Shown in pieces: positions 25,846 through 46,175 of a DNA stretch of 64,000 nt (positions are counted from its first letter, which is position 1; each line of letters begins with the position of its first letter). The translations under genes and the position numbers were made by a program. A model generated the notes under the pieces. It was not told the DNA's origin. It did not search any database and saw only the letters and a list, made by a program, of their open reading frames with translations. Source of the DNA: Myxococcota bacterium (GTDB lineage Bacteria > Myxococcota_A > UBA9160 > SMWR01); the NCBI GenBank assembly GCA_035541475.1, contig DATKND010000056.1, forward strand, positions 154 through 64,153, written 5' to 3'.

Positions 25846-25849
<4 letters not shown>
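24758..25849 (+). CDS. ntrB: PAS-domain sensor histidine kinase (NtrB-like)
   Basis: 363 aa. PAS, H-box GIAHEVRNPLGGI, HATPase N/G boxes (DDGPGIP, GGTGLGL). Starts 1 nt after the dusB stop, the classic nifR3-ntrB-ntrC arrangement. Confidence 0.85.
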
Positions 25850-27270
<1,421 letters not shown>

Positions 27271-27301
27271 CAACCCACCCCCCGCGCTGGAGATCGCAAC
27301 G

Positions 27302-27952
27302 GTGGACGACCAGCGCCTGTGGGGCCTCCACGTGCTCGCGGACGACGACCCCCGCTGGCGCCGCGATCCGGCGGCGCAGGCCGACGCGGCCTGCGCGGGC
27401 GGCGCCGCGGTGGTGCAGCTGCGCGCCAAGCGCGCGACCGACCGCGAGGCGCTCGCCTGGGCGCGCGCGATCCGGAAACGCACGCACGCGGCGGGCGTGC
27501 TCTTCTTCGTGAACGACCGCTTCGACCTGGCGCTCCTCGCGGAGGCCGACGGCGTGCACCTCGGACAGGGCGACCTGCCGCCGGACCGGCTGCCGGCGGA
27601 CGCGCGCGCGCGGCTGCGGGTCGGGCGCTCGACCCACACGCTCGAGCAGGCGCGCGCCGCGCGCGACGAGCGCGTGGACTACGCGGCCTTCGGCCCCGTG
27701 TTCGGCACGAGCTCGAAGCTGGCGGAGCATTCGCCGCGCGGGCTCACCGCGCTGGCGGAGGTCGCAAAGCTGCTGGCGCCGCTGCCGCTCGTCGCGATCG
27801 GCGGTATCGACGCCGCGCGCGCGGCCGCGTGTCGCGAGGCCGGCGCGGCGGGCGTCGCGGTGATCGGCGCGGTGGCCGGAGCCGACGATCCCGTCGCGGC
27901 CACGCGCGCGCTGGTCGCGGCGCTGCGATCCGGAGCCGTGTCGGCCGCGTGA
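27302..27952 (+). CDS. thiE: thiamine-phosphate synthase
   Basis: 216 aa. VVQLRAK, DGVHLGQGD, AIGGI motifs of ThiE. GTG start. Confidence 0.85.
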   Translation: MDDQRLWGLHVLADDDPRWRRDPAAQADAACAGGAAVVQLRAKRATDREALAWARAIRKRTHAAGVLFFVNDRFDLALLAEADGVHLGQGDLPPDRLPADARARLRVGRSTHTLEQARAARDERVDYAAFGPVFGTSSKLAEHSPRGLTALAEVAKLLAPLPLVAIGGIDAARAAACREAGAAGVAVIGAVAGADDPVAATRALVAALRSGAVSAA

Positions 27953-29178
27953 GCAACGCCGGCGCGCGCGCGGTCTCGGCGGCGGGCTTCGCCGTGCTGC
28001 TGCTCCTCTCGTGGGCGCTCTCGTCCGATCGGCGCCACGTGCCCTGGCGCGTGCTCTTCTGGGGCGTCGCGATCCAGCTCGCTCTCGGGGCGCTGCTCCT
28101 GCTGACCCCCGTCGGCACCGGCTTCTTCGCCGCCATGGACGGGCTGGTCGACGGGCTCTCGCGCGTCACTGAGGCCGGCGTGCGCTTCGTGTTCGGCTCG
28201 CTCGCGGACGCGGGCTTCTCCTTCGCTGTGCACGTGCTGCCCATCATCGTGGTGATGGGGAGCCTCTTCGCCGTCCTCTATCACCTCGGCATCATGCAGC
28301 GCCTCGTCGACTGGATCGGCATCGCGCTAGCGCGCACCATGGGCACCTCGGGCGCGGAGAGCCTGTCCGCGGTGGCCAACGTGCTCCTCGGCATGGTCGA
28401 GTCGGCGCTCGTGGTGCGGCCGTATCTCGAGCGCATGACGCGTTCGGAGCTCTTCTGCGTGATGACGGTCGGGATGGCCGGCGCGGCGGGCTCGGTGCTC
28501 GTCGCCTACGCCGCGATGCTCGGGCCGGGCTACGCGGGCCACCTCGCCACCGCGAGCCTGCTCTCCACGCCGGCCGGCATCCTGGTGGCGAAGATGATGG
28601 TGCCCGAGCGCGAGCGCCCCGTGACCACGGGCGGCGGACACGCGCAGATCGAGCGACTGGGGATCAACGTCTTCGACGCAGCGGCGCAAGGCGCTGCCGA
28701 GGGAATGCGGCTCGCCGCCTACGTCGGCGCGATGCTGGTGGCCTTCGTCGCCCTGATCGAGCTGCTCAACGCCGGCCTCGGCGCCATCGGCGCGCCGCTC
28801 GGCATCGAGGGTCTTTCGCTTCAGCGTGTCTTCGGCGTTCTCTTCGCGCCGTTCGCGTTCCTGATGGGGATCCCGTGGTCGGAGTCGCTCGCGGTCGGCG
28901 GACTCCTCGGCGTGAAGACCGTGCTGAACGAGTTCATCGCCTATCAGGAGCTGGCTGCGCTGTCGCAGCAGGGCGCGCTCACGCCGCGCTCGGTCGCGAT
29001 CACCTCCTACGCGCTGTGCGGCTTTGCGAACTTCGGCTCGCTCGCGATCCTGCTCGGCGGACTCGGCGGGCTCGTCCCCAGCCGACGCGAGGAGGTCGCG
29101 CGCTTCGGATTGCGCAGCATCGCGTCGGGAACTCTCGCATCGTTCATGACCGCTTGCGTGGCGGGAATGCTCCTGTGA
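27949..29178 (+). CDS. NupC/NupG-family (CNT) nucleoside transporter
   Basis: 409 aa from the GTG at 27949 (GTGA overlap). Multi-TM, with C-terminal ...YALCGFANFGSLAILLGGLG typical of CNT carriers. Confidence 0.85.
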   Translation: MSNAGARAVSAAGFAVLLLLSWALSSDRRHVPWRVLFWGVAIQLALGALLLLTPVGTGFFAAMDGLVDGLSRVTEAGVRFVFGSLADAGFSFAVHVLPIIVVMGSLFAVLYHLGIMQRLVDWIGIALARTMGTSGAESLSAVANVLLGMVESALVVRPYLERMTRSELFCVMTVGMAGAAGSVLVAYAAMLGPGYAGHLATASLLSTPAGILVAKMMVPERERPVTTGGGHAQIERLGINVFDAAAQGAAEGMRLAAYVGAMLVAFVALIELLNAGLGAIGAPLGIEGLSLQRVFGVLFAPFAFLMGIPWSESLAVGGLLGVKTVLNEFIAYQELAALSQQGALTPRSVAITSYALCGFANFGSLAILLGGLGGLVPSRREEVARFGLRSIASGTLASFMTACVAGMLL

Positions 29179-29235: not shown

Positions 29236-31194
29236 GTGGTAGAAAGCACACGAACTGAACGATCGAGCCGAGCGGTCGCGCTGCGACGGCTGCTCCTCGC
29301 TACGTCGCTCTGCGCGTGCGCGGTCGGCGCGCAGCGGGCGTCCGCGCAGTCGCAGCGCTTCGAAGGCGAGACCTATCCGGTGAGCTCCTTTCGCATCGAG
29401 TACGCGCTCGACGCCCCGGGCCAGCCCGATCCCGCGGAGCTGCTCGCCACCGAGATCGAGATGCGCGTTGCGGCGGGCGGCTTGCTGCCGCCGAACCCGG
29501 CTGCGCAGAGCGCGCACTTCCGACTCGACGCGGTACCGCCCGGTTCGCGCTTCTACCCGGCCGGCCTGCGCTACGTGAACCGGATGCTGCTCGCCGAGTT
29601 CACGAAGCGCGGCATCGGCGGTGTGCTGATCACCTTGCCCGAGCTCGACGAGTCGAAGGGCGCCGACCACCGCAAGCCGGGCGACACGTCGCTGCTCGTC
29701 CGTATCTGGACCGGACGCGTCGAGGAGGTCTCGACAGTGGCCGACGGCTCGCGCTACGGCGACGAGTCGATCGCGGAGCGCACGAACCGCGAGGATCAGG
29801 CCTGGATCCGCGACGGCTCGCCGGTGACCGCGGGCGGCGATCGCGCGCTGCTCCGCCCCGAGGACATCGAGGACTACGCGGCGCAGCTATCGCGCCAGCC
29901 CGGTCGTCTCGTCAGCCCCGTGTTGCGGCCCGGCGCGATGGAGGGCGCGACGCGCCTCGAGTATCACGTCGCGGAGCAGAAGCCCTGGCTGGTGTATGCC
30001 GAGGCCTCGAACACGGGCACGCCGGCGACGAGCGACTGGCGCGAGCGCTTCGGCTTCAGCGACACGCAGCTCACCGGTCACGACGACGTGGCGCGCTTCG
30101 AGTACACGACCGACTTCCAGAGCGTGCACGCGATCTGGGGCGAGTACGGGGGACCGGTGTGGCACGTGCCGCGCCTGCGCTGGCGCGTCGACGGCACGTG
30201 GAGCAAGTACGACTCGTCGGAGGTCGGCATCTCCGACATCGATTTCAACGGCGACGAATGGTCGACGAGCGGGCGACTCGACCTCAACGTGTTCCAGCAC
30301 CACGACATCTTCGTGGATCTCTTCGCAGACGCGCGCTGGGAGCGGATCGGGGTCGACAACGGCGCATCGGACCCGAGCCACGTGGAAAGCGACTTCTTCC
30401 TGCCGGGCGCCGGTATCAGCGCGTCGCGCGTCGGCGAGGCCTGGTCCTTCGACGCCGAGGCCGGCGTCTCGCACAACCTCGCCGACTTCGCCGACACGAA
30501 GAGCGGAGCGTCCCTCGCGGCGCTCGGCCGCGAGGATGCCGACCGGAATTTCACGCTCTTCACCTGGCACGCCGAGACCGCCTTCTATCCGCTGACCTTG
30601 CTGCGGCGCGCGAGCTGGCGGCAGGAGTCGGAGCTCGGCGCCTACGACTTCGTGCAGGAGCTCGGCTTCGAGTTCTTCGGCCAGCACTCGTTCGGCGACC
30701 GCCTCGTGCCGCAGCTCCAGCAGGTCGCGGGCGGGCTCTACACCGTGCGGGGATACCAGCAGTCGGTCACGGCCGGCGACACCGTCGCGATCGTGCGCGC
30801 CGAGTACCGCCTGCACCTGCCGCGATTGCTCGAGCCGTCGGCGGACGCTCCCGCCGTGCCGCTGCTTGGCACGTTCCGCGTGCGCCCCGAGAGCGCATTC
30901 GGTCTCCCCGACTGGGACCTGATCGCGCGCGCCTTCGTCGACACCGCGCAGGTCGTTCAATACAAGAGCCCCCACAACACCTGCAGTCCTCCGACGGCGC
31001 TGCAGCCGGGTCGATGCAATCAGCTGAACGAGCCCAACGAGACGCTCCACTCGTTCGGCTTCGGTGGTGAGCTGCGCATCCTCCGGTACTTCTCGGCGCG
31101 CCTCGATCTCGCCTGGCCGCAGCGGCGTCTGGAGAACAACAACCCCGAGCTCGAGAAGCCCATGCTCCAAGGCTCCATCAGCGTGCTCTACTAG
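29236..31194 (+). CDS. two-partner secretion transporter, ShlB/FhaC/HecB (Omp85/TpsB) family, copy 1
   Basis: 652 aa. Signal peptide ...CAVGAQRASA, POTRA-like N-terminal region, beta-barrel with L6 motif TVRGYQQ (30745-30756) and FVDTA strand motif, terminal ...GSISVLY aromatic. GTG start. Confidence 0.85.
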   Translation: MVESTRTERSSRAVALRRLLLATSLCACAVGAQRASAQSQRFEGETYPVSSFRIEYALDAPGQPDPAELLATEIEMRVAAGGLLPPNPAAQSAHFRLDAVPPGSRFYPAGLRYVNRMLLAEFTKRGIGGVLITLPELDESKGADHRKPGDTSLLVRIWTGRVEEVSTVADGSRYGDESIAERTNREDQAWIRDGSPVTAGGDRALLRPEDIEDYAAQLSRQPGRLVSPVLRPGAMEGATRLEYHVAEQKPWLVYAEASNTGTPATSDWRERFGFSDTQLTGHDDVARFEYTTDFQSVHAIWGEYGGPVWHVPRLRWRVDGTWSKYDSSEVGISDIDFNGDEWSTSGRLDLNVFQHHDIFVDLFADARWERIGVDNGASDPSHVESDFFLPGAGISASRVGEAWSFDAEAGVSHNLADFADTKSGASLAALGREDADRNFTLFTWHAETAFYPLTLLRRASWRQESELGAYDFVQELGFEFFGQHSFGDRLVPQLQQVAGGLYTVRGYQQSVTAGDTVAIVRAEYRLHLPRLLEPSADAPAVPLLGTFRVRPESAFGLPDWDLIARAFVDTAQVVQYKSPHNTCSPPTALQPGRCNQLNEPNETLHSFGFGGELRILRYFSARLDLAWPQRRLENNNPELEKPMLQGSISVLY

Positions 31195-31212
31195 AAGGAC
31201 GTGGAGGACCCG

Positions 31213-34200
31213 ATGTCGCAACGCACCCGGATGCTCCGCTCGTCCGCCGCGCGCGGGCTCGCCGCCTGGCTGCTCGCCGGGCTCGTCGTCGCGCCGCCGG
31301 GGCTGCCCGCGGCTCTCGCCGCGCCGAAAGGCGAGAAGGTCGTGCGCGGCAAGGCGACCTTCGTCCGCGACGGCGATCTCACGGTCATCCGTCCGAGCAA
31401 CGGCGCGATCATCGAGTACACCGGCTTCGACATCCTGCAGAACGAGGCGGTGCGCTTCGAGCAGCCGAGCGCGAAGTCGCGCGTGCTGAACCGCGTGTCG
31501 GGTCCCGTGAGCCTGATCGAGGGCAAGCTCTCCTCCAACGGCATCGTCTACATCCTGAACCCCGCCGGTGTCTTCTTCGGCCGCACCGCAGTGGTCGACG
31601 TGAAGGGCCTGATGGCCGCGGGCGGCGATCTCACCAACCGCGACTTCGCGCGCGGCGTCGATCGCTTCGATCTCACGGGCCCGGTCGAGAACCAGGGAAC
31701 CTTGCGCGCCGCCGCCGTGGAGCTCCTCGGCAGGAGCGTGACGAATGGCGGCGAGATCGTGACGCCGAACGGCGTCATCGCGCTCGTGGCCGGCGATCAC
31801 GTCTTGCTGACGAAGCTCGAGGGCGGCATCTCGATCGAGGTCGAGGGTCCGCCCGAGGGCGCGCAGACCGGCATCGAGCAGAGCGGCGTCGTCGACGCGG
31901 GCGCGGGCAGCGCGAATTTCGCGGTCGGCGACCACTACTCGCTCGCGATCAACCACTCCGGCATGACCCGCGCGCGCGACATCGAGCTGACGGGCGGCGA
32001 CGGCGGGCTCGTGCGCGTGGCGGGCACGCTCGACGCCTCGGACGCGACGGCCGGCGCGAAGGGCGGCAGGGTCCGCGCGACCGGCGATCTCGTCTCGCTC
32101 GAGGGCGCGACGCTCGACGCCTCGGGCGCGGCCGGCGGCGGCGAGATCCGCGTCGGCGGAGACGTCCACGGCGCGGGCCCGATGCCGAACGCGCGGCGCA
32201 CCTTCGTCGACGCGCAGAGCACGCTCCGCGCCGACGCGCTCGACTCGGGCGACGGCGGCAGCGCGGTCGTGTACGGCACCGAGGCGACGGGCTTCCTCGG
32301 GACGATCTCCGCGCGCGGCGGCGCCGCCGGCGGCAACGGCGGCTTCGCCGAGCTCTCGAGCGGCGGGCGCCTCGTCGATCAGGGCCACGCCGATCTCGGC
32401 GCGCCGCACGGGTCCGCCGGCACGCTCCTCTACGACCCGCAGGACATCGTGATCGTCGGCGGCACGCAGGACGGCAGCGACCAACCCAACACCGCGTCGG
32501 ATCAGCTCGCGCAGACGACCGCCGGCCAGATCCTCTACGCCGACGTCGGCAGCAGCGGCGAGCCCTTCCAGATCTTCGAGTCGGAGATAGAGGGCACGAA
32601 CGCGAACATCGTGCTCCAGGCTCGCAACAGCATCACGGCGAGCGGGACCTTCGATCACGACGCGGGCGGCGAGGGCGCCGGCGTCGTGGTGCTGAAGTCG
32701 GGCAACGATCTGACGCTCAGCACGCGCAACAACGGCGCCACGTCGACGGATCCGGGAGACGCGGCCGGCTCCACGATGGCGCCGGGCATCGATCTCACCG
32801 GCTCGACGCACGGCGCGAACCTCGAGTTCCGCACGACGGGCGACGGCGTCATCACGATGAATACCGGCAACGGCACGGTCGCCGGCCCCGAGGCGCCGAT
32901 CGTCGTCGGCGTGCTGACGACCGACGGACGCGGCGTGGGACTCATCACCAGGGATGGCGGCATCACCGTCAACCACGTCAGCACCGCGGGCGCGAGCGGC
33001 GCGACCGGCGCCAATGGCGGGAACATCGTGCTCGACGCGAGCGACAAGGACGGCAGCGGCGACTCCAACATTCTCGTGACCGGCGACCTCGTGACGCGCG
33101 GCGGTGACGGCACGACCGGCTCGGGAGGGCGCGGCGGCGTGATCAGCCTGGCGGTGCGCGCGAATCCACCGCCCGATGCGATGACGCCACCCGTCGGCGG
33201 CGGCACGATCACGGTGAACGGAAACATCGATACGCGCGGTGGCAGCACGACCGGCACGAGCGACACGAGCTTCGGCGGGAACGGCGGCGGCGTCAGCATC
33301 CAGGCCACCAACGGCGACATCGTCCTCCACGACATCGATGCGTCCGGCGGCACGACCGCGGGCGGGAAGGAGGCGTCCGGCGGTGGCTCCGGGGGCTTCG
33401 TGGGCATGGAGGCCCAGAACCAGGGCGGGATCACCGTCGGCAAGATCACGAGCCGTGGCGGCGATGCGATCTCGACGAACGCCAGCGACGGCGGCGTCGG
33501 CGGCAGCGTCAGCCTGGTGACACAACACGGCGACGTCGATGTGGGCGCCGTCGACACGAGCGGCGGCGCGACCGACGGCAATCAGCTGGATCCGACGGAT
33601 CCGACCCAGCCGGGCGAGTTCGGCGGCACCGGGGGCGACATCCAGGTCCTCGCGGGCTCGCAGTTCGATCAATCGGGCAGCATCCATCTGAACGGAAACC
33701 TCGTGCTGCTCGGCGGCAGCAAGGGCGCCGCTCCGAATGGCGCCGAAGGCCTCGGCGGCGTCGCCGAGCTGCGCGCGCACGACTCGATCGAGACCGCCGG
33801 ACAGGCGGGGCCAAACATCACGACGCAGGCCAACGTGGTCCTGAACGCGGCCAACGTCGGCGCGGTGTCGCCGATCCTCGTGAGCGGGCAGCGCCCCGGC
33901 GGCGAAGCCTCGCCGAAGGGTCTGCTCGGCCTCGGCGCCGACGAGGTCGCGCGCGTGGTGATCGACGAGGGCACGTTCGACGACATCGAGGTCGTCACGT
34001 TCAGCGGGACCGCAGACATGCAGGTCGTCGAGGGCGCCTCGCCGATCGTGCAGATCCAGAACGCGCAGCTCGTGCTGGCCGACTCGACAGCGCATCACGC
34101 GGATCTCGTGGTCGGCAGGCAGGACCGGCTCGACGGCGCCGCCAACACCCCGAATGCCGACATCAAGAACGACGGCCCGCTGCTCCCCTTCACGATCCAG

Positions 34201-36387
34201 ACGGGCAGCATCAACGCGGGCGGCAACGTGCGCGTCACCTCCGAGGGCGACATCATCGTCGGGACCACTCCGGGGACGGTGGCGACGATGCACGCGCTGC
34301 CGCCCGATCCGGCGCATCCGTCCGACCCCAGCGTCTCGGGCGTCCTGATCCTCGACGCCGATTCCGACCGCGATGGGATCGATAAGAACCCGGACGGGTC
34401 GTTCAAGAATCCGCTTGGCGGCGCGATCATCATGGCCCCCGGTGCATCGCTCGATCTCTTCGGCGGCGCCAGCAAGGCCGGCGGACTCGGCGGTTTCGCC
34501 TCGAGCGGCATCGGCACACCGGCCAATCCGGTCGTGACGGTGGGCGGCGGCCCCGTCGGACTCACGAACCTGGCGGAGAACGGCGTCTATCTCCGCAACG
34601 ACGGCAGCGGCGACCTGCACGTCGCGGACGTCGCAATCCTCGGCGACCCGAACAATCCCAACGACGACATCCGCGTGGTCGGCGTCAGCACGCAGGGTGG
34701 CGACGGCGAGATCGTGGTCGAGAACACCGCCGGCAATCTCGTGCTCGAGCGGAGCGTGCAGACCTCCGGCGCGAAGCAGATCACTGGACCGAACACGGGC
34801 GGAGACATCACGCTGCGCGTGCCGTCGGGCTCTCGCATCGTGTTGAACTCGCCGCCGGCCATCTTCGACGCGGACGCCAACGGCAACCTGACGATCGACG
34901 GCGATGTCACCTTGATGCAAGACGCGCGCGTGCGCAGTCAGCAGGGGAACGTCGTCTTCAACGGCACCATCGACACCGACAGCGACCCGACGCTCGAGAA
35001 CCGCGTGCGCTCGCTCGGCGTGGTCGCGTGCGACACCGCCGAGAAGTGCACGCGGACTCCGGGCACGGCGGGCGACATCGACGTGACCGGCGACATCGGC
35101 GCGACCAAGGATCTGCGCGGTCTGATCTTCGACGGCAACGTCGTGCTCTCGGGCGGCGCGCGCCTCGTGAAGACGACGAACCTGCTGAGCTTCCTCGGCG
35201 ACGTCACCGCCGACGCGCAGGACAGCGCGTCGCTCGACATCGTGGCCGGGCCGAGCGTCTCGTTCATGGGCAACGTCGGAGGCGCCGATCCGACCGATCC
35301 CAGCCATCGCCTCGCCGGATTCTCGATCGCGCACAACGACGATCCACCCTTCGATCCGTCGCTGAACGTGACCCTGCCGCAGCCGGTCGTCATCTTCGGC
35401 GGCGACACCGCGCAGACGGTGCAGACCGGAGCGGGCGGCATCGCCTTCACACCGGATGGCCTGCCGGAAATTCCCAACCGCGCGCAGGTCTCGAAGCGCG
35501 GCGGCGACCTGACCCTCTCGAGCGCAGGCGGCACGATCGACTTCGGGCAGAACCAGAAGCTCTCGGTGCAGGGCCAGGCGGCGATCACGGCCGACCAGGT
35601 TCTGCTCGGCGACGTCAATGCGCTCGGTCTGAACGTCACGTCACCGGACGCGCGCATCCGCGCGCGCGACCCGGGACAGGTGCTCCTCAAGTCGGGCGCG
35701 ACGGTCGAGGACCACGGCGCCGACATCATTGCCAACACCGTCACGTTCTCGTCGGACGTCACCGTCGAGGGCACGGGACCCGCGCCGCGCATCGCGACGC
35801 AGAGCGGGAGCGCGGCGGGCGCGGGCGCGCTCGATGTGCAGACCCTGCCGAATCCCGTGCAGAACAGCGATCTCGAGCGCGGCCGCGGCACCTTGCTCGA
35901 CCTGACCTTCCTGCCGACCGAGCTGCCGAACGAGACGCCGCAGCGCGGCCAGATCGTCGAGGAGATCGTGCCGCTGCGCCGCGCCGATCAGACCGCAGCG
36001 GGCAGCGCGCTCGCCCCGGGCGCCGAGGCGACGCTCGCCTATCTCCGCTGCACGGCCGAGCAGCGCAGCGACTGCGCGGTGGCGCCGGGCTCGCCGCTCG
36101 ATTCGCCGCGCGGCAAGCAGCTGGCCGCGGACTCGGCGCGCCTGCTCGGCGACTCGCCCGAGGCGCACAACCTGCGCGCCGCGCTCGCGCGGCTCGATCC
36201 GGCCGCGCTGCGCGAGCTCGCCGTCTTTCTGACCGAGATGCGGCTGCTCGGACTGAGCGACTCCGAGTACCAGTCGGTACGCGACTCGCTCTATCGCGAG
36301 ATCCTCGCCGACCGCGGTCCGGACGCCCCCGACGCGCGCGCCTTCGCGCAGGCGGTGGAGAGCCAGGCTCGTGGAGTGCCGCTCTGA
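31213..36387 (+). CDS. TpsA-type exoprotein 1 (filamentous haemagglutinin N-terminal/TPS domain protein, 1724 aa)
   Basis: ATG at 31213 preceded by GGAGGA (the track start GTG 31201 lacks an RBS). Signal peptide, then TPS domain GKATFVRDGDLTVIRPS...EAVRFEQPSAKSRVLNRVSG...SSNGIVYILNPAGVFFG. Long Gly-rich beta-helix-like repeats and a distinct C-terminal module. Confidence 0.9.
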   Translation: MSQRTRMLRSSAARGLAAWLLAGLVVAPPGLPAALAAPKGEKVVRGKATFVRDGDLTVIRPSNGAIIEYTGFDILQNEAVRFEQPSAKSRVLNRVSGPVSLIEGKLSSNGIVYILNPAGVFFGRTAVVDVKGLMAAGGDLTNRDFARGVDRFDLTGPVENQGTLRAAAVELLGRSVTNGGEIVTPNGVIALVAGDHVLLTKLEGGISIEVEGPPEGAQTGIEQSGVVDAGAGSANFAVGDHYSLAINHSGMTRARDIELTGGDGGLVRVAGTLDASDATAGAKGGRVRATGDLVSLEGATLDASGAAGGGEIRVGGDVHGAGPMPNARRTFVDAQSTLRADALDSGDGGSAVVYGTEATGFLGTISARGGAAGGNGGFAELSSGGRLVDQGHADLGAPHGSAGTLLYDPQDIVIVGGTQDGSDQPNTASDQLAQTTAGQILYADVGSSGEPFQIFESEIEGTNANIVLQARNSITASGTFDHDAGGEGAGVVVLKSGNDLTLSTRNNGATSTDPGDAAGSTMAPGIDLTGSTHGANLEFRTTGDGVITMNTGNGTVAGPEAPIVVGVLTTDGRGVGLITRDGGITVNHVSTAGASGATGANGGNIVLDASDKDGSGDSNILVTGDLVTRGGDGTTGSGGRGGVISLAVRANPPPDAMTPPVGGGTITVNGNIDTRGGSTTGTSDTSFGGNGGGVSIQATNGDIVLHDIDASGGTTAGGKEASGGGSGGFVGMEAQNQGGITVGKITSRGGDAISTNASDGGVGGSVSLVTQHGDVDVGAVDTSGGATDGNQLDPTDPTQPGEFGGTGGDIQVLAGSQFDQSGSIHLNGNLVLLGGSKGAAPNGAEGLGGVAELRAHDSIETAGQAGPNITTQANVVLNAANVGAVSPILVSGQRPGGEASPKGLLGLGADEVARVVIDEGTFDDIEVVTFSGTADMQVVEGASPIVQIQNAQLVLADSTAHHADLVVGRQDRLDGAANTPNADIKNDGPLLPFTIQTGSINAGGNVRVTSEGDIIVGTTPGTVATMHALPPDPAHPSDPSVSGVLILDADSDRDGIDKNPDGSFKNPLGGAIIMAPGASLDLFGGASKAGGLGGFASSGIGTPANPVVTVGGGPVGLTNLAENGVYLRNDGSGDLHVADVAILGDPNNPNDDIRVVGVSTQGGDGEIVVENTAGNLVLERSVQTSGAKQITGPNTGGDITLRVPSGSRIVLNSPPAIFDADANGNLTIDGDVTLMQDARVRSQQGNVVFNGTIDTDSDPTLENRVRSLGVVACDTAEKCTRTPGTAGDIDVTGDIGATKDLRGLIFDGNVVLSGGARLVKTTNLLSFLGDVTADAQDSASLDIVAGPSVSFMGNVGGADPTDPSHRLAGFSIAHNDDPPFDPSLNVTLPQPVVIFGGDTAQTVQTGAGGIAFTPDGLPEIPNRAQVSKRGGDLTLSSAGGTIDFGQNQKLSVQGQAAITADQVLLGDVNALGLNVTSPDARIRARDPGQVLLKSGATVEDHGADIIANTVTFSSDVTVEGTGPAPRIATQSGSAAGAGALDVQTLPNPVQNSDLERGRGTLLDLTFLPTELPNETPQRGQIVEEIVPLRRADQTAAGSALAPGAEATLAYLRCTAEQRSDCAVAPGSPLDSPRGKQLAADSARLLGDSPEAHNLRAALARLDPAALRELAVFLTEMRLLGLSDSEYQSVRDSLYREILADRGPDAPDARAFAQAVESQARGVPL

Positions 36388-36467
36388 GCTTCGCGCGAGG
36401 CGCAGCCGAGCGGAGTCGATGAGACTAGAATGCCGGCCACCGACGCCCCCGCCTCGGTGCCGTTCCA

Positions 36468-38375
36468 ATGCGCCAGACGAACGAGCCTTCGCACTCGGTG
36501 CGCCGCGCGCGGCGCAGCGCGGTGCACTTGGCGATCGCGTGCATCGCGTTCGCCGCAGCGTCCGCGCGCGCGATCGTGACGCCGCAGGGCCCTGCCTACC
36601 CGGTGTCGCAGTTCGTGGTCGAGTACGCGATCGGCCACCCGCATCACATCCCGGAGTACGAGATCCTGAACCTCGAGGTCGGGCTCGCCGGTCAGCCGGG
36701 GCTGCTCACCGCGCCGCGCCCGGTCGACCGCACCATGCGCATGCGCCTCGACGCGCCGCCGCAGGGCATGCTCTTCACGGCCGAGGCGATCCAGCACATC
36801 AACCGCTACATCGTCTCGACCTTCAACCGCCGCGGCTACAACGGCGTGATCGTGTCCGTGCCCGACATCGAGGAGGGCACCGGCCGCGACCTGCGCCCGC
36901 CGGGTGACACGACGCTCCGGCTCCGCATCTGGACCGGCCGCATCACGCGCCTCACCACCTTCGCGGACGACGAGCGCTTCGGCGGGCTCAGCGTCGACGA
37001 GCGCACGAACCTGCCGGCGCACGAGTGGATCCGCGACCGCGCGCCGGTCCAGCCGGGCGGCGTGCGCGCGATCCTCGACGTGGTGGCGCTCGAGGACTAC
37101 GCGGACTGGCTCTCGCGCCATCCGGGACGCCGCGTCGACGTCGAGGTCAGCCCCGGCCCGCATCCGGGCAGCTCGGACGTGAATCTGCGGATCGCCGAGC
37201 AGAAGCCCTGGCGCGTCTTCGCGGAGTACTCGAACACCGGCACTGCCGCCACCACGAAGAACCGCGAGCGCTTCGGCTTCGTCGACACGCAGCTCACCTC
37301 GCGCGACGACACCCTCGACCTCACCTACTCGACCGGCGACTTCGACACCGTGCAGGCGGTCTACGGCGGCTACGAGGCTCCCTTCAGCTTGAACTACCCG
37401 ACCTTGCGCGGCCGCGTGCGCGGGCTCTGGGACAAGTACGACTCGAGCGACGTCGGCTTCGACACGCTCGGCTTCAAGGGCGAGGAGTGGCTCACCGAGG
37501 GCTCGCTCGTCTGGCAGGCCTATCAGGACCACAAGCTCTTCGTCGATCTCGTGGGCGGCGTCCGCTACCACGACATCTCCTCCGACGGCGGCCAGTTCAA
37601 CCAAGGCGCGGCCGGCTGCAAGTCGAACGGCAACGGCCATGCCGACTTCGTCGTGCCTCATTTCGGTGTCGAGAGCGAGCGCGACACGGGCTGGACCAGC
37701 ATGCGCAGCAGCATGGGGTTCGACGTCGGCGTGACCGGCGCGGACTCCTGCGATCTCGACAACCTCGGCAACCTCGACGCCTCGGATCACTTCGTCGTGT
37801 TCAACTGGAGCAGCGCGCTCTCGTTCTTCCTCGAACCGCTGCTGAATCCGCAGGGCTGGGAGGATCCGACCAACCACGCGGACTCGACGCTCGCGCACGA
37901 GATCCAGCTCGACTTCTCGGGCCAGTACGCGTTCGAGCGGCTGGTGCCGCAGTACCAGGCGATCGCCGGCGGACTCGACACCGTGCGCGGCGCCAAGCAG
38001 GCCCAGGTCGCGGGCGACGACCTGGTGCTCGGCCGCGCCGAGTACCGCCTGCACGTGCCGCGCCTCTTCAAGCCCGACGCGACGCCGACCACCTTGCCGG
38101 TCTTCGGCGATTTCCGCACGCGGCCCGCGCACGTCTTCGGCCTGCCGGACTGGGACTTCGTCGTCAGCCTCTTCAGCGACGTCGGCTGGGTCGGCTACCA
38201 CGACCAGAACCCGACCGAGCACGAGGCGACGCTCTGGAGCATCGGCACCGGCTTCGAGCTGCAGGTGCTGCGCAACTTCGTGATCGGCGTGGACGTCGGA
38301 TACATGATCCAGGGCGCGGAAGAGAGTCGGGACGGCACCACCGAGACCAACGTCCTGGCCACGATCCTCTACTAG
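36468..38375 (+). CDS. two-partner secretion transporter, ShlB/FhaC (TpsB) family, copy 2
   Basis: 635 aa, collinear paralogue of copy 1 (YPVSQFVVEYA..., LRIWTGRI, AEQKPWRVFAEYSNTGT, NRERFGFVDTQLT). L6 motif is TVRGAKQ, with FSDVG strand motif and terminal ...LATILY. Confidence 0.85.
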   Translation: MRQTNEPSHSVRRARRSAVHLAIACIAFAAASARAIVTPQGPAYPVSQFVVEYAIGHPHHIPEYEILNLEVGLAGQPGLLTAPRPVDRTMRMRLDAPPQGMLFTAEAIQHINRYIVSTFNRRGYNGVIVSVPDIEEGTGRDLRPPGDTTLRLRIWTGRITRLTTFADDERFGGLSVDERTNLPAHEWIRDRAPVQPGGVRAILDVVALEDYADWLSRHPGRRVDVEVSPGPHPGSSDVNLRIAEQKPWRVFAEYSNTGTAATTKNRERFGFVDTQLTSRDDTLDLTYSTGDFDTVQAVYGGYEAPFSLNYPTLRGRVRGLWDKYDSSDVGFDTLGFKGEEWLTEGSLVWQAYQDHKLFVDLVGGVRYHDISSDGGQFNQGAAGCKSNGNGHADFVVPHFGVESERDTGWTSMRSSMGFDVGVTGADSCDLDNLGNLDASDHFVVFNWSSALSFFLEPLLNPQGWEDPTNHADSTLAHEIQLDFSGQYAFERLVPQYQAIAGGLDTVRGAKQAQVAGDDLVLGRAEYRLHVPRLFKPDATPTTLPVFGDFRTRPAHVFGLPDWDFVVSLFSDVGWVGYHDQNPTEHEATLWSIGTGFELQVLRNFVIGVDVGYMIQGAEESRDGTTETNVLATILY

Positions 38376-38383
38376 GAGCGCGC

Positions 38384-41300
38384 ATGCGAAAGGCATGGGA
38401 GCGGAGCGAAGCGCGGACGTCGCGGGCGCGGCGCGCGACCGCCTGGAGCGTGCTCGGCGCCTTCCTCGGCACCTTGCCCGGCGCGCCCGCCGCGATCGCC
38501 GCGCCGCAGGGCGAGCGCGTCGTGAAGGGCAAGGCGACCTTCGAGCGCGACGGCGCGGACACGCACATCACGACGCAGACGAAGGAGACGATCGTCGACT
38601 ACGACCGCTTCGACGTCGGCTCCGGCGAGAGCGTGCGCATCGACCAGCCGACCTCGCGCTCGCGCATCCTGAACCGCGTCCCGCGCGGCGACGAGAGCCG
38701 CATCGACGGCTCGCTCTCCTCGAACGGCATCGTCTACATCCTGAACCCGGCCGGCGTGTTCCTCGGCGACCACGCGGTGGTGAGCGTCGGCGGGCTCGTG
38801 GCGGGCGCGGGCTCGCTCTCGAACAAGGACTTCTCGCGCGGCGTCGACCGCATCACCGACGTGCAGGGCGATGTCGGCGTGGCCGAGGGCGCGCGCGTGC
38901 AGTCCACCGGCGACGTGCTGCTCGCCGGGCGCCACGTCGAGAACCTCGGCGAGATCGCGAGCGAGCGCGGCATGATCGCGCTCGTCGCCGGCCAGAACGT
39001 GATGCTGACGCGCCACGGCAGCCACCTGCTCCTCGATGTCGACGCGCCGGCGGAGTCCGCCGGCGATCCGAACTTTGCGCTCACCCAGGCCGGCACGCTC
39101 GAGGCCAAGAGCGTCACCTTGTCCGCGGGCGACAGCTACTCGCTCGCGATGAACCACACCGGCATCACGCGCGCCGGCGAGATCGACGTCCAGGCCGGGC
39201 GCGAGGCCGAGGTCGAGCTCGCGGGCACGCTCGACGCCTCGAACGCGGCGGTCGGCAAGACCGGCGGGAGCATCCACGTCGAGGGCGGGAAGATCGACGT
39301 GCAGGACGCGACGCTCGACGCCTCGGGCGCCGCGGGCGGCGGCGAGATCCTCGTCGGCGGCGATCTGCACGGCGGCGGGACCATGCCGGTCGCGCACGAC
39401 GTGGAGGTCGGCGCGGACGCGACACTCCGCGCGGACGCCACGGCCGCCGGCAACGGCGGGAAGATCATCGTCTACGCGGACGAGCAGACGCGCTTCTACG
39501 GGGCCGTCTCCGCGCGCGGCGGTCCGCAGGGCGGCGACGGCGGCTTCGCCGAGATCTCGGGGATGGTGCTCACGGCCGCGGGCCACGTCGATCTCGGCGC
39601 CGCGCAGGGCCAGAGCGGAACGGTGCTCTACGACCCGGACAAGATCGTGATCGTCGGCGGCAGCGGCACCGACACGAACGATCCGACGGTGAGCCAGATG
39701 TACGAGTCGAGCCTCGAGAGCACGAATGCGGACGTCGTGATCTCGGCGACGAACCGGATCGAGACCGCGGGCACTTTCACGAACCAGGCCGCCGGCGAGG
39801 GCCCGGGCATCGTCGTGATCATGCCGGGCCACAGCCTGACCTTGCGGACCACGGCCACCTCGGCGCCGCTGAGCGCCGGCCCCGACGACTTCGGCATCGA
39901 TCTCACGAAGAGCTCGGAGGGCGACACGCTCACCTGGCGCGTAAGCCAGGGCGGGAACATCACGATCCAGACCGCGTTCGACACCGTGGACCCGGCGCCC
40001 TCGTTTCAGCCGCCCATCAAGGTCGGCAAGCTCGAGTCGAACAGCGCGGCCTTCCAGACCACTACGACGGCGAGCGTCGACACGCCCGTGTCGGCGGACC
40101 GGACCATCACGATCTCCGCCAAGCGCGGCGACATTTCCGTGCGTCAGATCACCGCGAACGGCGACGACGCGACGCCGGCGCAGCCCGCCGAGGGGAACAA
40201 TCCGGCGAGAGCGGCCCGTAGCGCCAGCGGAGCCGCGAGCATCACGGTCACGAGCTCGGAGGGCAACGTCACGATCGGCAACGGATCGGACGCCTTCGCG
40301 ATCCAGGCGCATGGCGGCAGCGGCACGCCGAGCGCCCACTCACTCGGTGCGAAGGGCGCCTCGGTCACGATCGGCACCGAGGGCGGGAATCTGGACGTGC
40401 TCGGCGCGATCGACGCCCACGGCGGCGACGGCGTCGGCTCCTTCACGATCACGAATCCAACCACGGGGCAGTCGGGCCAGGCCTCGGGCGGCGGCGCCGG
40501 CGGCGCGATCGCGCTCGCCGCGACCACGAGCTCGACCGATCCCGCCGTCGACCAGGGTCACCTCCGAGTGATGGCGGACCTCGATGCTCGCGGCGGCAAC
40601 GGCCACGCGGTGCGCAACGACGACGGAACAGTGGAGGACGCGACCGGCAACTTCGGCGGCGCGATCGCGCTCTCCGCGACGCGGACCATCGATGTCGGGG
40701 CAGCGGGCGCGCGCGTCACCTTCGACGCGTCGGGCGGCGACGGCACTTCGTCGGGCGGCAGCGCGCGCGGCAGCAACGCCAGTCTGACCCCCGATGTGCC
40801 GGGGGCCGCCCTGACCGAGGCCTTCCGCATCTCGGGTCCGGTCGCCGACAACGGATCGGTCGGGGTCACCGAGGACGACGTCACGATCCACGCGGACCTG
40901 ATCGCACGAGGCGGCAACGCGCGAAGCGGGGCTCTCGCCGAGGACGGCATCGCGTTCTCGGAGCTTGCGGGCGGGGACGGCGGCCACGGCGGCGACGCCA
41001 GCGTGCAGGCGCACAGTTTCCTCGCGAGCGACATGCTGCTCGACATGAGCGGGGGCGCAGGGAGCGCCGCCCCGGTGCGAGGCGGCGTCGATCCGCCGCG
41101 CGGCGCGGATGGCAAGGCGCTCCTGCTCGGCGGAAACGGCGGCACGCTCTCGATCGGCGCCGAGGCGACGATCGAGCTCGGCGGCACCGCATCCGATCCG
41201 GAGGCCTGCTGCGGCGTGATCTCGCGGGGCGGCGACGCCACGAACGGCGGCGCCGGAGACGGCGGCATCGTCACGGCCACGGGCGGCGACGTTGCGCCGA

Positions 41301-44300
41301 CCGGAGCGCCCGATCCGACGCATTGGATCATCGCCGGCGACATGGACGTGTCGGGCGGCAACGCGTCGCTCGAGAACCCGACCAGCAAGGTGCCGCTCGA
41401 CGGCGGTGCCGGCGGCAGCATCACGCTCACCTCGAACGAGGAGGACGTCGGCCGCGTGCTGCTGCGCGGGCGGCTCGGCGGCGAGGGCGGCACGGGCATC
41501 GACACGGATGGCAACACCACGCACGGACAGGGTGCCACCGTGACCCTGACCGCGGTGTCGGCCATTCAGGTCGATGGCTCGGTGCTGAACCCCGATGGCA
41601 GCGTCCCGGCAGGTGTCGTCGTCGGGGGAGGCAACCTGACGCTCGGCGCGAAGTACATCGGAACCGGAACGAACGACGACGGCACGCCGACGGGCGTGGA
41701 CGCGCCGATCCCGATCGCCGGCACGGCCGTCACGGGCGCCGAGGGCTCCGACCTCGCGACGATCACGGGCAACGCCCCGGACACCACCGCCAATGCCGGG
41801 CGGATCGCCGTGGAGCTCCGACGCGAGAACGGGCTCCCGACGAACGGGACCGACGCCGCGGGCCAGGAGGGCCTCGAGACCCTCGTGGTCGTGATGCACG
41901 ACCCGGCGAGCACGGCGCTGGTGACGCGCGACGACTCGGGTGGCGACACCATGGTGCTCCAATCGGTCGGGGCTACCGCCACGACGCCCCACACGCTCGA
42001 GAGTCTCCAGACGAACGACGGGGATCCGTTCGTCGAATATCGCCTCGACGTCAGCGTCGACACCACCACCGGTGCGACGCAGCCCGACCTCGCGATCGCG
42101 CGCGATGCGATCGACGTGGGCATCGTGGGGGCGCGGGTCGCGAACGGCGGCACCAACCCCGACGCGACCACCGGCGTCGCGCCGAATCGCGGCGCGATCG
42201 TGGCGGTCGGCGCCGGCACGGATCCGCACGCCACCACCGCCGGCACCCTGAACTTCGAGGGCTCGTCGATCGGGACGGCGACGGATCCGATCGAAGTGGC
42301 CGGTGTCACGCACGACCAGCCCGGCGCGACGAACCCGATCCGACCGATCCTGCGCTTCGACGCGCAGGGCGAGATCCAGGCGAAGGTCGCTCAGAGCACG
42401 CCCGTCTCCGACCTCGAGATCGTGCAGTTCGACGCGGGATCCGGCGCGCACGTCGACCTCGGCGGAGGCGACGGTATCCAGATCGACTCGGCCAGCGCCG
42501 ACTCGAGGGTTCCGATCAGCCGCATCACGAGCGCGGTCACGACCGCGTCGGGCACCGGCTTCAGCTATCGGCTCGAGGCGAAGGCTCCCGACAAGTCGGT
42601 GAATGAGGCAGCCCTCCAGGTGGACCACGTCGACCTCGGCGGCACCGGCCTGCTGAGCGCCCCGGGCGACGTGCTGCTGCGCGACACCGGCAGCGGCTCG
42701 CCCGCGATCCAGACGAACGGCCACGCGCTTTCGATCTCGAGCACGAGCGGCGGCATCCAGCAGGAAGGCACCGGGATCTCGATCGACATGAGCGGCGGCA
42801 CGGGCACGGAGCGCGATCTCGTGCTGACCACCAACGGCGACATCGGCACCGTCGGCACCAACGGCGCCCCCGATCAGCCGATCCGCACGCGCGGGGTCCA
42901 TCGCCTCGCGGGCCAGGCGGCGCTCGGCGACCTCGTGCTCGTGAACGACTCCGCGGGCACCGACGGGCTCCGGATCGAGCAGCTCACGCCGCAGGATCCC
43001 GCGCTCCAGGATTCCGGCTCGAGCGGCTCTTCCGTCAACGGGCTCCTCGCGAGCGGATCGAACGGGAGCGGCAACGTCCGCATCGAGAACGACGACTCGC
43101 GCATCGTGCTCGGCAACGTGGGCGCCGGTGGCGAGTTCAGCGTCGCGCAGATCACCGCGGCCGCGGGCGTGATGTTGAAGGCGCAGTCGATCGAGATCGA
43201 GAACGCGCGTTACCTGAAGGTCGCGACGCCGCTCGGCCCGGTGTTCGTACCGCTGAACGACGCGCGCATCGCGGCGGGCAAGGACGTGGTGCTCGACGGG
43301 CCGGTGCAGACCTCGCTCGGCTCGGTCGCCTCGAGCACGGACCCGGCCGCGCCGGCCCCCCAGTTCGTGAACGGCAAGCTGAAGATCGAGTCGAAGGGCA
43401 CGACGCACTTCACCGGCGACGTCGGCGGCGACGGCAGCGACGACCAGAACGAGCTCGCGCTGCTCGACACGACCGATGCGGCCGCCGAGGGCGCCGGCAC
43501 GCGCACCTTCCGCGTCGGCGACGCGCACTTCCGCGGCACGCTCGACGGCCCGGCGGGCGTGCAGGTGATCGCGCACGACCTCAGCACGTCGGCGCCGGAC
43601 CACGTGGCCGGCGCGACCTTCGACGGAAACATCGGCGGTCACACGCCGCTCGCAAGCTTCGACGTGCAGGCCGAGCAGCTCCGCTTCACGACAGCGAACC
43701 AGATCGTCGCGACGGGCGACATCACCCTCGACGGCAATCCGACGAACACCCCGCAGACGGTCGCGACGATCGCCGACACCACCGGCGGTCTCAGCATCCG
43801 CTCGCAGAACGGCACGTTCCGCACCGGCGAGCAGCCCGTTCCGGGTGCCGTCACGAACGAGAAGCTCTCGGTGCAGGGGCCGCTCGAGATCTCCGCTCAG
43901 CACGTCTCGGTCGAGGACGTCAACGCCGCGCAGCACCTCCAGATCAACTCGCCCGACATCCAGATCCGCGCGCGCGATCCCGGTACGCTGCTGCTCAAGA
44001 ACGGCCAGACGACGACCGACGGCGGCACCGACCTCGTCGCCGACTCGATCTCCTTCTCGACGCTCCCGACGATCGATCACGGCGCGAGCACCGCGCCCGT
44101 GCTCCTCGGCGTGGGCGGCGGCGGCGTCTCCGCGCCGGGCAACTTGAGCGACTTCGAGGTTAGGCGCTTCACGCCGAGCGTGGACCGCGTCGTGCCGGGC
44201 GACATGACGGGTCCGAGCGGCGTGGTGCTCGACCTGACCGCGACCGGCAACAGCATCGTCGGCGATCCGAGCGAGGACGTGCCGCGGCAGCGCCCGCTGA

Positions 44301-44863
44301 CCGACCCGTACCTGCCGCCGCGCTTCAGCAAGCAGCAGCCGGGGCCCGCTCCGGTCGTCGACGCGGAGCAGGTGCTCGCATATCTGCGCTGCGGCGACGC
44401 AGGCGGCGTCGGCGCGGGCTGCGACGTGGCGGACAGCGAGGAGCTCGCCGGCGTGCACGACTGGCAGAACTCCGCGCTTGCGACACCGCGCGCGGATCAG
44501 CTCGCGCAGAGCTACCGCGCGATGCGCGCGCACAAGCTCTCCGCGGTCTTCGACCGGGCCGGCACGGGCTTCCGCCAGGCGCAGGGCTTCGGCGAGTTCG
44601 ATTCGGCGGCCTTCGCCCGCTACCTCGAGAGCGGCGCGCAGCCCGAGGCGCGCACGGCGATCCACCAGCTCGCGTACCTGCTGGTCGAGGTCGATCTCCT
44701 CGGCCTCGCGCCCGCCGACGAGATGCACGTGCGCCGCGAGCTCGCCTCGCAGCTCGCGACCGAGGCCGACCTCGAGGGCTTCGACACGGACGCCGCGCTG
44801 CAAGCCGTCGCGGCGACGTCGATCGAGCTGCCGCAGCGGGCCGCGAACGAGACGCGGCGCTAG
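38384..44863 (+). CDS. TpsA-type exoprotein 2 (TPS domain protein, 2159 aa)
   Basis: ATG at 38384 with AGGAG 5 nt upstream, 8 nt after the tpsB2 stop. TPS domain GKATFERDGADTHITTQ...ESVRIDQPTSRSRILNRV...SSNGIVYILNPAGVFLG. Gly-rich repeats and a C-terminal module shared with exoprotein 1. The upstream 453 codons of the track ORF overlap tpsB2 and are rejected. Confidence 0.9.
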   Translation: MRKAWERSEARTSRARRATAWSVLGAFLGTLPGAPAAIAAPQGERVVKGKATFERDGADTHITTQTKETIVDYDRFDVGSGESVRIDQPTSRSRILNRVPRGDESRIDGSLSSNGIVYILNPAGVFLGDHAVVSVGGLVAGAGSLSNKDFSRGVDRITDVQGDVGVAEGARVQSTGDVLLAGRHVENLGEIASERGMIALVAGQNVMLTRHGSHLLLDVDAPAESAGDPNFALTQAGTLEAKSVTLSAGDSYSLAMNHTGITRAGEIDVQAGREAEVELAGTLDASNAAVGKTGGSIHVEGGKIDVQDATLDASGAAGGGEILVGGDLHGGGTMPVAHDVEVGADATLRADATAAGNGGKIIVYADEQTRFYGAVSARGGPQGGDGGFAEISGMVLTAAGHVDLGAAQGQSGTVLYDPDKIVIVGGSGTDTNDPTVSQMYESSLESTNADVVISATNRIETAGTFTNQAAGEGPGIVVIMPGHSLTLRTTATSAPLSAGPDDFGIDLTKSSEGDTLTWRVSQGGNITIQTAFDTVDPAPSFQPPIKVGKLESNSAAFQTTTTASVDTPVSADRTITISAKRGDISVRQITANGDDATPAQPAEGNNPARAARSASGAASITVTSSEGNVTIGNGSDAFAIQAHGGSGTPSAHSLGAKGASVTIGTEGGNLDVLGAIDAHGGDGVGSFTITNPTTGQSGQASGGGAGGAIALAATTSSTDPAVDQGHLRVMADLDARGGNGHAVRNDDGTVEDATGNFGGAIALSATRTIDVGAAGARVTFDASGGDGTSSGGSARGSNASLTPDVPGAALTEAFRISGPVADNGSVGVTEDDVTIHADLIARGGNARSGALAEDGIAFSELAGGDGGHGGDASVQAHSFLASDMLLDMSGGAGSAAPVRGGVDPPRGADGKALLLGGNGGTLSIGAEATIELGGTASDPEACCGVISRGGDATNGGAGDGGIVTATGGDVAPTGAPDPTHWIIAGDMDVSGGNASLENPTSKVPLDGGAGGSITLTSNEEDVGRVLLRGRLGGEGGTGIDTDGNTTHGQGATVTLTAVSAIQVDGSVLNPDGSVPAGVVVGGGNLTLGAKYIGTGTNDDGTPTGVDAPIPIAGTAVTGAEGSDLATITGNAPDTTANAGRIAVELRRENGLPTNGTDAAGQEGLETLVVVMHDPASTALVTRDDSGGDTMVLQSVGATATTPHTLESLQTNDGDPFVEYRLDVSVDTTTGATQPDLAIARDAIDVGIVGARVANGGTNPDATTGVAPNRGAIVAVGAGTDPHATTAGTLNFEGSSIGTATDPIEVAGVTHDQPGATNPIRPILRFDAQGEIQAKVAQSTPVSDLEIVQFDAGSGAHVDLGGGDGIQIDSASADSRVPISRITSAVTTASGTGFSYRLEAKAPDKSVNEAALQVDHVDLGGTGLLSAPGDVLLRDTGSGSPAIQTNGHALSISSTSGGIQQEGTGISIDMSGGTGTERDLVLTTNGDIGTVGTNGAPDQPIRTRGVHRLAGQAALGDLVLVNDSAGTDGLRIEQLTPQDPALQDSGSSGSSVNGLLASGSNGSGNVRIENDDSRIVLGNVGAGGEFSVAQITAAAGVMLKAQSIEIENARYLKVATPLGPVFVPLNDARIAAGKDVVLDGPVQTSLGSVASSTDPAAPAPQFVNGKLKIESKGTTHFTGDVGGDGSDDQNELALLDTTDAAAEGAGTRTFRVGDAHFRGTLDGPAGVQVIAHDLSTSAPDHVAGATFDGNIGGHTPLASFDVQAEQLRFTTANQIVATGDITLDGNPTNTPQTVATIADTTGGLSIRSQNGTFRTGEQPVPGAVTNEKLSVQGPLEISAQHVSVEDVNAAQHLQINSPDIQIRARDPGTLLLKNGQTTTDGGTDLVADSISFSTLPTIDHGASTAPVLLGVGGGGVSAPGNLSDFEVRRFTPSVDRVVPGDMTGPSGVVLDLTATGNSIVGDPSEDVPRQRPLTDPYLPPRFSKQQPGPAPVVDAEQVLAYLRCGDAGGVGAGCDVADSEELAGVHDWQNSALATPRADQLAQSYRAMRAHKLSAVFDRAGTGFRQAQGFGEFDSAAFARYLESGAQPEARTAIHQLAYLLVEVDLLGLAPADEMHVRRELASQLATEADLEGFDTDAALQAVAATSIELPQRAANETRR

Positions 44864-46088: not shown

Positions 46089-46175
46089 GCCGCAGCATCA
46101 TAATCGGCGGCCGCCGCGCCGTGCGCACGAAAACTCGCGGGTCTTCGCGGTCGCGAGCGCCGCTAAGCTGGCCCC

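Follow-up and report, generated by a model that had tools for sequence, protein, structure and literature searches.

A conserved linker and helical domain at the C-termini of two tandem TpsA exoproteins: a candidate periplasmic retention module

Two large TpsA exoproteins of the two-partner secretion (TPS) type, TpsA1 and TpsA2 (hereafter A1 and A2), are encoded in tandem in the 64,000-nucleotide stretch of Myxococcota DNA analyzed here (contig DATKND010000056.1; "the window"; G+C 72%), each behind its own TpsB transporter gene, and both end in a related C-terminal tail. Judging from profile searches, this tail contains a previously unannotated TpsA C-terminal domain family that spans at least two phyla. 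By analogy with characterized TpsA proteins, we favor, with a probability of roughly 0.5, the interpretation that the tail is a C-terminal retention module (a stopper or anchor) of an enlarged HMW1/HxuA type, which would be held in the periplasm and tether the adhesin to its outer-membrane transporter.

The topology, disulfide formation, periplasmic location and tethering that this interpretation entails are what we infer from anatomy, conservation and precedent. The TpsA would be threaded N-to-C through its own TpsB and would fold outside as a beta-helix, as far as a conserved LDL motif near its end. The acidic, all-helical domain that terminates the chain, if already folded in the periplasm, could not pass the TpsB pore, and in the Myxococcota forms a short Cys–Cys loop made by the Dsb system would additionally lock it there. 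A Pro-rich linker of ~41 residues would remain threaded through the TpsB channel and POTRA region; the filament would consequently stay tethered to the cell, and its release, if any, would require cleavage of the linker.

Several features, mostly read from sequence comparisons and predicted structures, argue for such a module, those of anatomy, conservation, TPS subgroup, exclusive occurrence and missing toxin or immunity features being shown by the analysis itself. Both proteins are TpsAs with an adjacent TpsB and with TPS regions that match only EtpA, HMW1 and HxuA in the PDB at E<=0.01; the Cys pair is invariant across diverse tails of the Cys type and often supplies the only Cys of the protein; a beta-helix, a low-confidence linker and a confident helical domain are predicted in this order, and the held length of the linker is what a spacer across a fixed distance would show; and tail conservation ranks second to that of the TPS region only. 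The exclusive occurrence of the tail at TpsA C-termini, with no alternative cassettes, points the same way, as do the lack of a VENN-type motif or an immunity-like open reading frame (ORF) in a conserved TpsB–TpsA context and the case of EtpA, which is the nearest relative with a solved structure, is released and has no such tail.

Release or tethering of a TPS protein determines whether it works in soluble form or as an adhesin bound to the cell. To our knowledge, the only characterized TpsA tether is the very short disulfide tail of HMW1 and HxuA. The family described here appears to be a larger, domain-sized tether with a ruler-like spacer, distributed from Myxococcota to Planctomycetota, and its natural variants with and without the disulfide may offer a ready comparison for what halts translocation through the TpsB pore.

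Anatomy of the C-terminal tail

Two AlphaFold2 (AF2) models were computed, one of the last 381 amino acids (aa) of A1 with a 12-sequence alignment and one of the last 132 aa of A1 alone. In the first, a terminal beta-helix is followed by a low-confidence, Pro-rich linker and then by a helical domain. Beta strands span the SPD box and ~70–85 residues past it, with a block predicted local distance difference test score (pLDDT) of up to 95, and the low-confidence linker begins past the conserved LLDLT motif. The parts of the two tails are as follows.

35551..35907, + strand: A1 terminal beta-helix segment, NQKLSVQG to LLDLT (AF2 strands, block pLDDT 61–95)
35641–35676, + strand: A1 SPDxxIRARDPG box, inside the terminal beta-helix segment
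35908..36021, + strand: A1 Pro-rich linker (FLPTELPNETPQ...), predicted to be disordered (pLDDT 23–49)
36022..36384, + strand: A1 acidic six-helix C-terminal domain (domain-only AF2 model, pLDDT 86.6, predicted template-modeling score 0.80)
43856..44239, + strand: A2 terminal beta-helix segment, NEKLSVQG to VLDLT (by alignment with the A1 segment)
43949–43984, + strand: A2 SPD box, inside the terminal beta-helix segment
44240..44362, + strand: A2 Pro-rich linker (ATGNSIVGDPSEDVPRQ...) (by alignment with the A1 linker and the length class of the family)
44363..44860, + strand: A2 helical C-terminal domain (by sequence alignments)

A preliminary description of these genes, made from the DNA letters, had proposed a C-terminal module common to both proteins that opens at the SPD box and is unlike the shaft. 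All the peptides that it quoted lie where they were placed, those of the opening being SPDARIRARDPGQVLLKSG from 35641 in A1 and SPDIQIRARDPGTLLLKNG from 43949 in A2, and the tails, of 248 and 304 aa, can be aligned over their full length with 29% identity (BLASTP E=7e-18), a similarity confirmed by this alignment as far above chance. The opening itself has to be moved: A1/A2 similarity runs ~135 aa further upstream of the box (E=5e-25), and family-wide conservation sets in ~30 residues before it, at NQKLSVQG in A1 (35551) and NEKLSVQG in A2 (43856). The distinction from the shaft applies to the last 160–210 aa but not to the region from the SPD box to LLDLT, which is predicted beta-strand (pLDDT to ~95), so that the proposed boundaries had merged the end of the shaft with the true tail of linker and helical domain. 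The terminal beta-helix segment is conserved in A2 and out to the Planctomycetota homologues (NEKLT...LGDLN...LDL).

The helical domain measures 120–165 aa. The AF2 model of the A1 end has six helices. The LAYLRC motif ends helix 1, and the loop after it holds the second Cys; the domain of A1 further carries an SPLDSPRG motif, an LLGL motif and a GVPL end. The Cys pair is C1613/C1621 in A1 (C-x7-C, codons 36049–51 and 36073–75) and C2003/C2013 in A2 (C-x9-C, codons 44390–92 and 44420–22), and all four codons read TGC and lie at the positions that had been given. A2 has an additional FARYLESGAQPEAR helix region in this domain that is common to the Planctomycetota homologues, as the hhalign alignment spans the insert. 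Each protein also has one further tight Cys pair in the shaft, C1273/C1279 in A1 (VVACDTAEKCT, 35029–35049) and C942-C943 in A2 (ACCGV, 41207–41212), and no other Cys beyond these and the tail pair.

Conservation of the tail

When A1 is compared with eight orthologues, identity amounts to 55–65% over residues 61–480, the TPS region, 20–39% over the shaft and 35–51% over the last 280 residues. The tail is thus second in conservation within the protein, behind the TPS region, which is the part of a TpsA that contacts TpsB.

Across 21 diverse tails of the Cys type neither Cys ever changes, whereas the loop between them is hypervariable in sequence and length (4–14 residues in all but a few sequences). 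Among near-complete members, the domain contains exactly two Cys in 39/61, none in 19/61 and one in 3/61; in 21 of the 39 two-Cys members, the domain pair represents the sole Cys in ~1,800 aa. The Planctomycetota clade has no Cys in the helical domain, and because this clade dispenses with the pair, the distribution implies that the helical domain rather than the disulfide would be the core element.

Between LDL and the domain, the linker measures 41 aa at the median (10th–90th percentile, 38–46.5). It is ~21% Pro and variable in sequence, with the semi-conserved motifs DPxxExP and P-x-R. A length that is held while the sequence varies is expected of a spacer across a fixed distance.

The helical domain is acidic, with a median pI of 4.8 across the family. 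Many members end exactly in G-(V/L/M)-(P/A/T)-(L/I), the end of A1 being ARGVPL (36367–36384); A2-type tails have short C-terminal extensions in place of the apolar end that A1-type tails display as GVPL. This apolar family C-terminus resembles the ends recognized by PDZ domains or C-terminal proteases.

Family size and distribution

The extent of the family emerged from an exhaustive profile search over 1.84 billion representatives, which gave 121 clusters at E<=1e-3 and 67 at E<=1e-10; a word-indexed homologue search found 10 close fragments only and badly underestimated it. The preliminary description had asked whether the module travels with proteins other than TpsAs, and every member that the exhaustive search recovered in sufficiently complete form is a TpsA. 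A TPS-type N-terminus is present in 53 of the 60 matches of at least 900 aa; the other 7/60 begin within the shaft and are therefore, on the sequence, N-terminally truncated. A stand-alone small protein was considered and rejected, all short matches being fragments or internal-start miscalls.

The position of the helical domain is invariably the very C-terminus; the median number of residues beyond it is 3. A locally iterated hidden Markov model detected the domain in 127 of the 137 sequences retrieved; the others are truncated, frameshifted or highly divergent, and no family member among these 137 carries an alternative C-terminal cassette behind the same shaft end.

Members belong to Myxococcota (Cys-pair type) and Planctomycetota (Cys-less type). 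The latter form a clade from metagenome-assembled genomes (MAGs) with TpsAs of ~1,100–1,400 aa, one of which is found in a TpsB–TpsA pair on contig L006. The initial search matched this clade at the shaft end only; hhalign then aligned its tails with the C-terminus over 269 columns (probability 99.5%, E=4e-23), identifying them as homologous. A scan of genome contigs returned four Planctomycetota MAG loci with the Planctomycetota-type profile and nothing with the Myxococcota-type profile, and tblastn of the linker and helical domain against plasmids gave no match.

Several homologues, from ENA sample ERZ25039602 and others, are split or read into Arg-rich out-of-frame sequence (L001 3923–10903, L002 7113–16669, P0010, P0028, P0049 and P0122). 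These look like frameshift assembly errors rather than real short proteins.

Searches for known domains

The module had been described as belonging to no assigned family, and this holds across every collection searched: Pfam, NCBIfam, profiles against PDB sequences and Foldseek against the PDB. With Pfam and NCBIfam, the two whole proteins and both tails returned the TPS domain only, the rest being sub-threshold noise, and eight distant tails gave no domain match. Profile searches with alignments A3, A5 and A6 against PDB sequences produced chance-level matches only. Foldseek of the helical domain against the PDB reached a best E of 0.52 at a TM-score of ~0.3, and the whole 381-aa model did no better. 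Of the two outcomes that were to count against the module, neither occurred: no known domain matched with confidence, and the tails do show pairwise similarity. A sorting signal of the PEP-CTERM, type IX secretion (T9SS) or LPXTG type was rejected, there being no NCBIfam match and no transmembrane segment on reading the sequence. The new family could join Pfam or NCBIfam and would sharpen the annotation of entries named [quoted passage not shown].

Comparison with HMW1, HxuA and EtpA

The literature distinguishes FHA and HMW subfamilies of TpsAs. In the HMW subfamily, represented by HMW1 and HxuA, a defining C-terminal disulfide anchors the TpsA and the tail is periplasmic (PMC4873976, PMC5422565, PMC8151025). 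In HxuA the Cys are C855/C861, the last 69 residues are disordered, and the tail has been proposed to lie in the HxuB barrel and the periplasm (PMC4873976); Cys-to-Ser variants of HxuA are released more efficiently (PMC4873976; also PMC5422565, PMC8151025).

The window proteins share the marks of this subfamily. PF05860 is found in both TpsAs and PF03865 in both upstream genes, and the TPS regions are of the HMW1/HxuA type, not the FHA/ShlA type: for both, no PDB sequence other than EtpA, the HMW1 pro-piece 2odl and HxuA matches at E<=0.01, and the N-terminal 440 aa match EtpA with E=2e-44. A closely spaced, conserved C-terminal Cys pair (C-x7-C, C-x9-C) is present as well, with the caveat that it lies 104–157 aa from the C-terminus and that the domain of 19/61 near-complete members has no Cys. 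The resemblance extends to the C-terminal location on a TpsA with an HMW1/HxuA/EtpA-type TPS domain, to the two near Cys that are the sole, or nearly sole, Cys of a very large protein, and to the flexible or disordered stretch ahead of them.

There are also clear differences. The tail has no detectable sequence similarity to that of HxuA; the HxuA chain of 884 aa is not among the matches of the A3, A5 and A6 profiles at a cut-off as loose as E<=10, the HMW1 tail lying outside this comparison. A conserved helical domain of 100–150 aa follows the Cys loop here, as against <=25 residues in HMW1 and HxuA, and it is preceded by a spacer of conserved length that those proteins do not share. Moreover, a whole clade here does without the Cys pair, and anchoring, established for HMW1 and HxuA, is a prediction for the present family. 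The tail is best seen, under the retention interpretation, as working like the HMW1/HxuA anchor, with homology to it not demonstrable.

EtpA of enterotoxigenic Escherichia coli (ETEC), the closest solved relative of the TPS region, is similar over the N-terminal 440 aa. Unlike A1 and A2, it ends in repeats (...GNSEVYWQ) and has no linker, Cys pair or helical domain. EtpA is a released protein.

Alternative explanations

Two functions had been suggested for the module at the outset, FhaB-like control of secretion and a new functional tip. As to the tip, the helical domain might be an exported cargo that, after an arrest like that of CdiA or FhaB, is pushed out to act outside or in a target cell, for instance a prey cell. 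A domain without known fold or family leaves room for such an activity, and its carriers are MAGs of Planctomycetota and of Myxococcota, a phylum in which predation occurs. It would also resemble CdiA-CT in being a distinct, non-beta C-terminal domain on a TpsB-exported TpsA. Nonetheless, we regard this as unlikely, if worth keeping in mind. The C-terminal part of CdiA proteins varies among close relatives, whereas the domain here is not polymorphic, is conserved over two phyla and recurs, as noted, in nearly all retrieved sequences without ever being exchanged for another cassette. Neither protein contains VENN, ELYN, NEALV, LYVN or DAMV, and no PT-VENN match was obtained from Pfam, so that a pretoxin motif is lacking; an immunity gene is lacking too, since downstream of A1 there is an 80-nt gap before TpsB2 and downstream of A2 a convergent transglutaminase/TPR gene, with the same picture in L003–L005, and gaps of 18, 80 and 8 nt leave no room for an immunity-type ORF. 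The Pfam scan detected no FHA-2-like membrane-penetrating domain, reading the sequence by eye revealed no hydrophobic hairpins suggestive of a pore, and an acidic all-alpha domain would probably be a poor substrate for the TpsB pore once folded. The tip thus seems disfavored by a tail that is second in conservation, never swapped and all-alpha behind a spacer of fixed length. In a more elaborate version, for Myxococcota and Planctomycetota alike, the tail would be no passive anchor: the fixed-length Pro-rich spacer would keep the acidic helical domain periplasmic as long as the filament has no target bound, and binding would trigger its export to act on or in another cell. This strikes us as more doubtful still.

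Of the two suggestions, periplasmic retention proved the better-supported guess, although the HMW1/HxuA disulfide anchor appears to be a closer precedent than the FhaB prodomain because the TPS domains group with EtpA, HMW1 and HxuA, the Cys pair does not vary within the Myxococcota-type clade, where it is often the only Cys of the protein, and neither FHA-2 nor a large prodomain is present. In FhaB itself, the C-terminal domain is periplasmic during surface display and, as reported in a 2025 preprint, is subsequently delivered into host cells; it has an electropositive alpha/beta fold, binds microtubules and lies behind an FHA-2-like region (bioRxiv 10.1101/2025.06.17.660209). An equivalent prodomain in A1 and A2 would be transiently periplasmic, control the timing or conformation of secretion and then be degraded by periplasmic proteases, releasing the mature filament. 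The layout is indeed that of the FhaB C-terminus, an unstructured Pro-rich region (here pLDDT 23–49, 21% Pro) followed by a small, confidently predicted globular domain on a TpsA (bioRxiv 10.1101/2025.06.17.660209). The linker motifs DPxxExP and P-x-R could be a protease site, and many members have the apolar G-V/L/M-P-L/I terminus. Apolar C-terminal ends are of the kind recognized by C-terminal processing proteases, but A2-type tails lack this terminus and carry extensions instead, and no protease gene is conserved in the neighborhood (L003–L005). The dimensions and composition differ as well: the FhaB prodomain comprises ~1,200 aa with an FHA-2-like domain, whereas here a ~41-aa linker stands within a non-beta tail of 160–210 aa, Pfam and NCBIfam give TPS only, with no FHA-2/Fil_haemagg repeat, and the TPS subgroup is of the HMW/EtpA type, not FHA. 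Homology to FhaB-CT finds no support from fold or charge, the domain here being all-alpha and acidic (median pI 4.8) with no PDB match in fold or sequence. A transient prodomain of this kind accordingly seems doubtful to us. That the tail serves to cap the beta-helix at its C-terminal end or to help it fold, and has no part in topology, is highly improbable. Beta-helices usually require capping, and the tail follows immediately on the last beta rungs and the conserved LDL motif, but ~41 low-confidence, Pro-rich residues separate the helical domain from the last rung, TpsA folding is templated by the N-terminal TPS domain, and EtpA manages without such a tail. A slim chance is left to explanations beyond the four readings considered here, namely retention, cargo or tip, prodomain and cap.

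Genomic context

The two tails belong to a tandem at 29236–44863 that consists of two paralogous TpsB–TpsA systems.

29236..31194, + strand: TpsB1, outer-membrane transporter gene 5′ of TpsA1 (Pfam ShlB PF03865, E=1.7e-7)
31213..36387, + strand: TpsA1 coding sequence, 1724 aa, HVN38109.1 (Pfam TPS PF05860, E=7.6e-20; exact protein-collection match)
36468..38375, + strand: TpsB2, transporter gene for TpsA2 (Pfam ShlB, E=2.4e-10)
38384..44863, + strand: TpsA2 coding sequence, 2159 aa, HVN38111.1 (Pfam TPS, E=1.7e-24; exact protein-collection match)

In GenBank, HVN38109.1 and HVN38111.1, which come from a Myxococcota MAG, are annotated just as [quoted passage not shown]. The intergenic gaps measure 18 nt (TpsB1–TpsA1), 80 nt (TpsA1–TpsB2) and 8 nt (TpsB2–TpsA2), and the next gene after TpsA2 is the convergent transglutaminase-like/TPR gene at 44860–46128 (− strand). 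The true start of TpsA2 is 38384 (MRKAWERS...); a start at GTG 37025 was rejected, as 37025–38383 (+) is an Arg/Pro-rich out-of-frame reading over TpsB2, a typical high-GC artifact. Over the tails, the coding frame is on the + strand with a third-position G+C (GC3) of 0.91–0.95, which rules out an opposite-strand gene there. A phmmer search of TpsB1 against PDB sequences gave no match.

The TpsB–TpsA–TpsB–TpsA tandem is kept in the related contigs L003 (6083–19903) and L004 (6096–21520), with both TpsAs of each being members of the tail family. This conservation marks an old duplication of which both copies have been kept. L001 and L002 are syntenic with the window locus but contain many frameshifts, and L005, from a more distant Myxococcota member, has one TpsB–TpsA pair. 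No third gene is conserved beside the TPS system across the related loci compared.

In the related contigs L001, L002 and L003, the genes that flank the TPS tandem are syntenic with those of the window. Upstream in the window, at 25120–29178, these are genes for a TMP-TENI protein, a nucleoside transporter and a sigma-54 response regulator, and this activator is a candidate for controlling the TPS locus; downstream, the transglutaminase-like/TPR gene belongs to them. In L005 (1–5340), the TpsB–TpsA pair adjoins type VI secretion genes (TssF, gp25-like, VipA/VipB) and a Ser/Thr kinase/PP2C/FHA cluster. In the Planctomycetota MAG contig L006, a thioredoxin/AhpC-like protein with TPR repeats (7994–9706) follows the Cys-less TpsA, a juxtaposition that is probably a coincidence.

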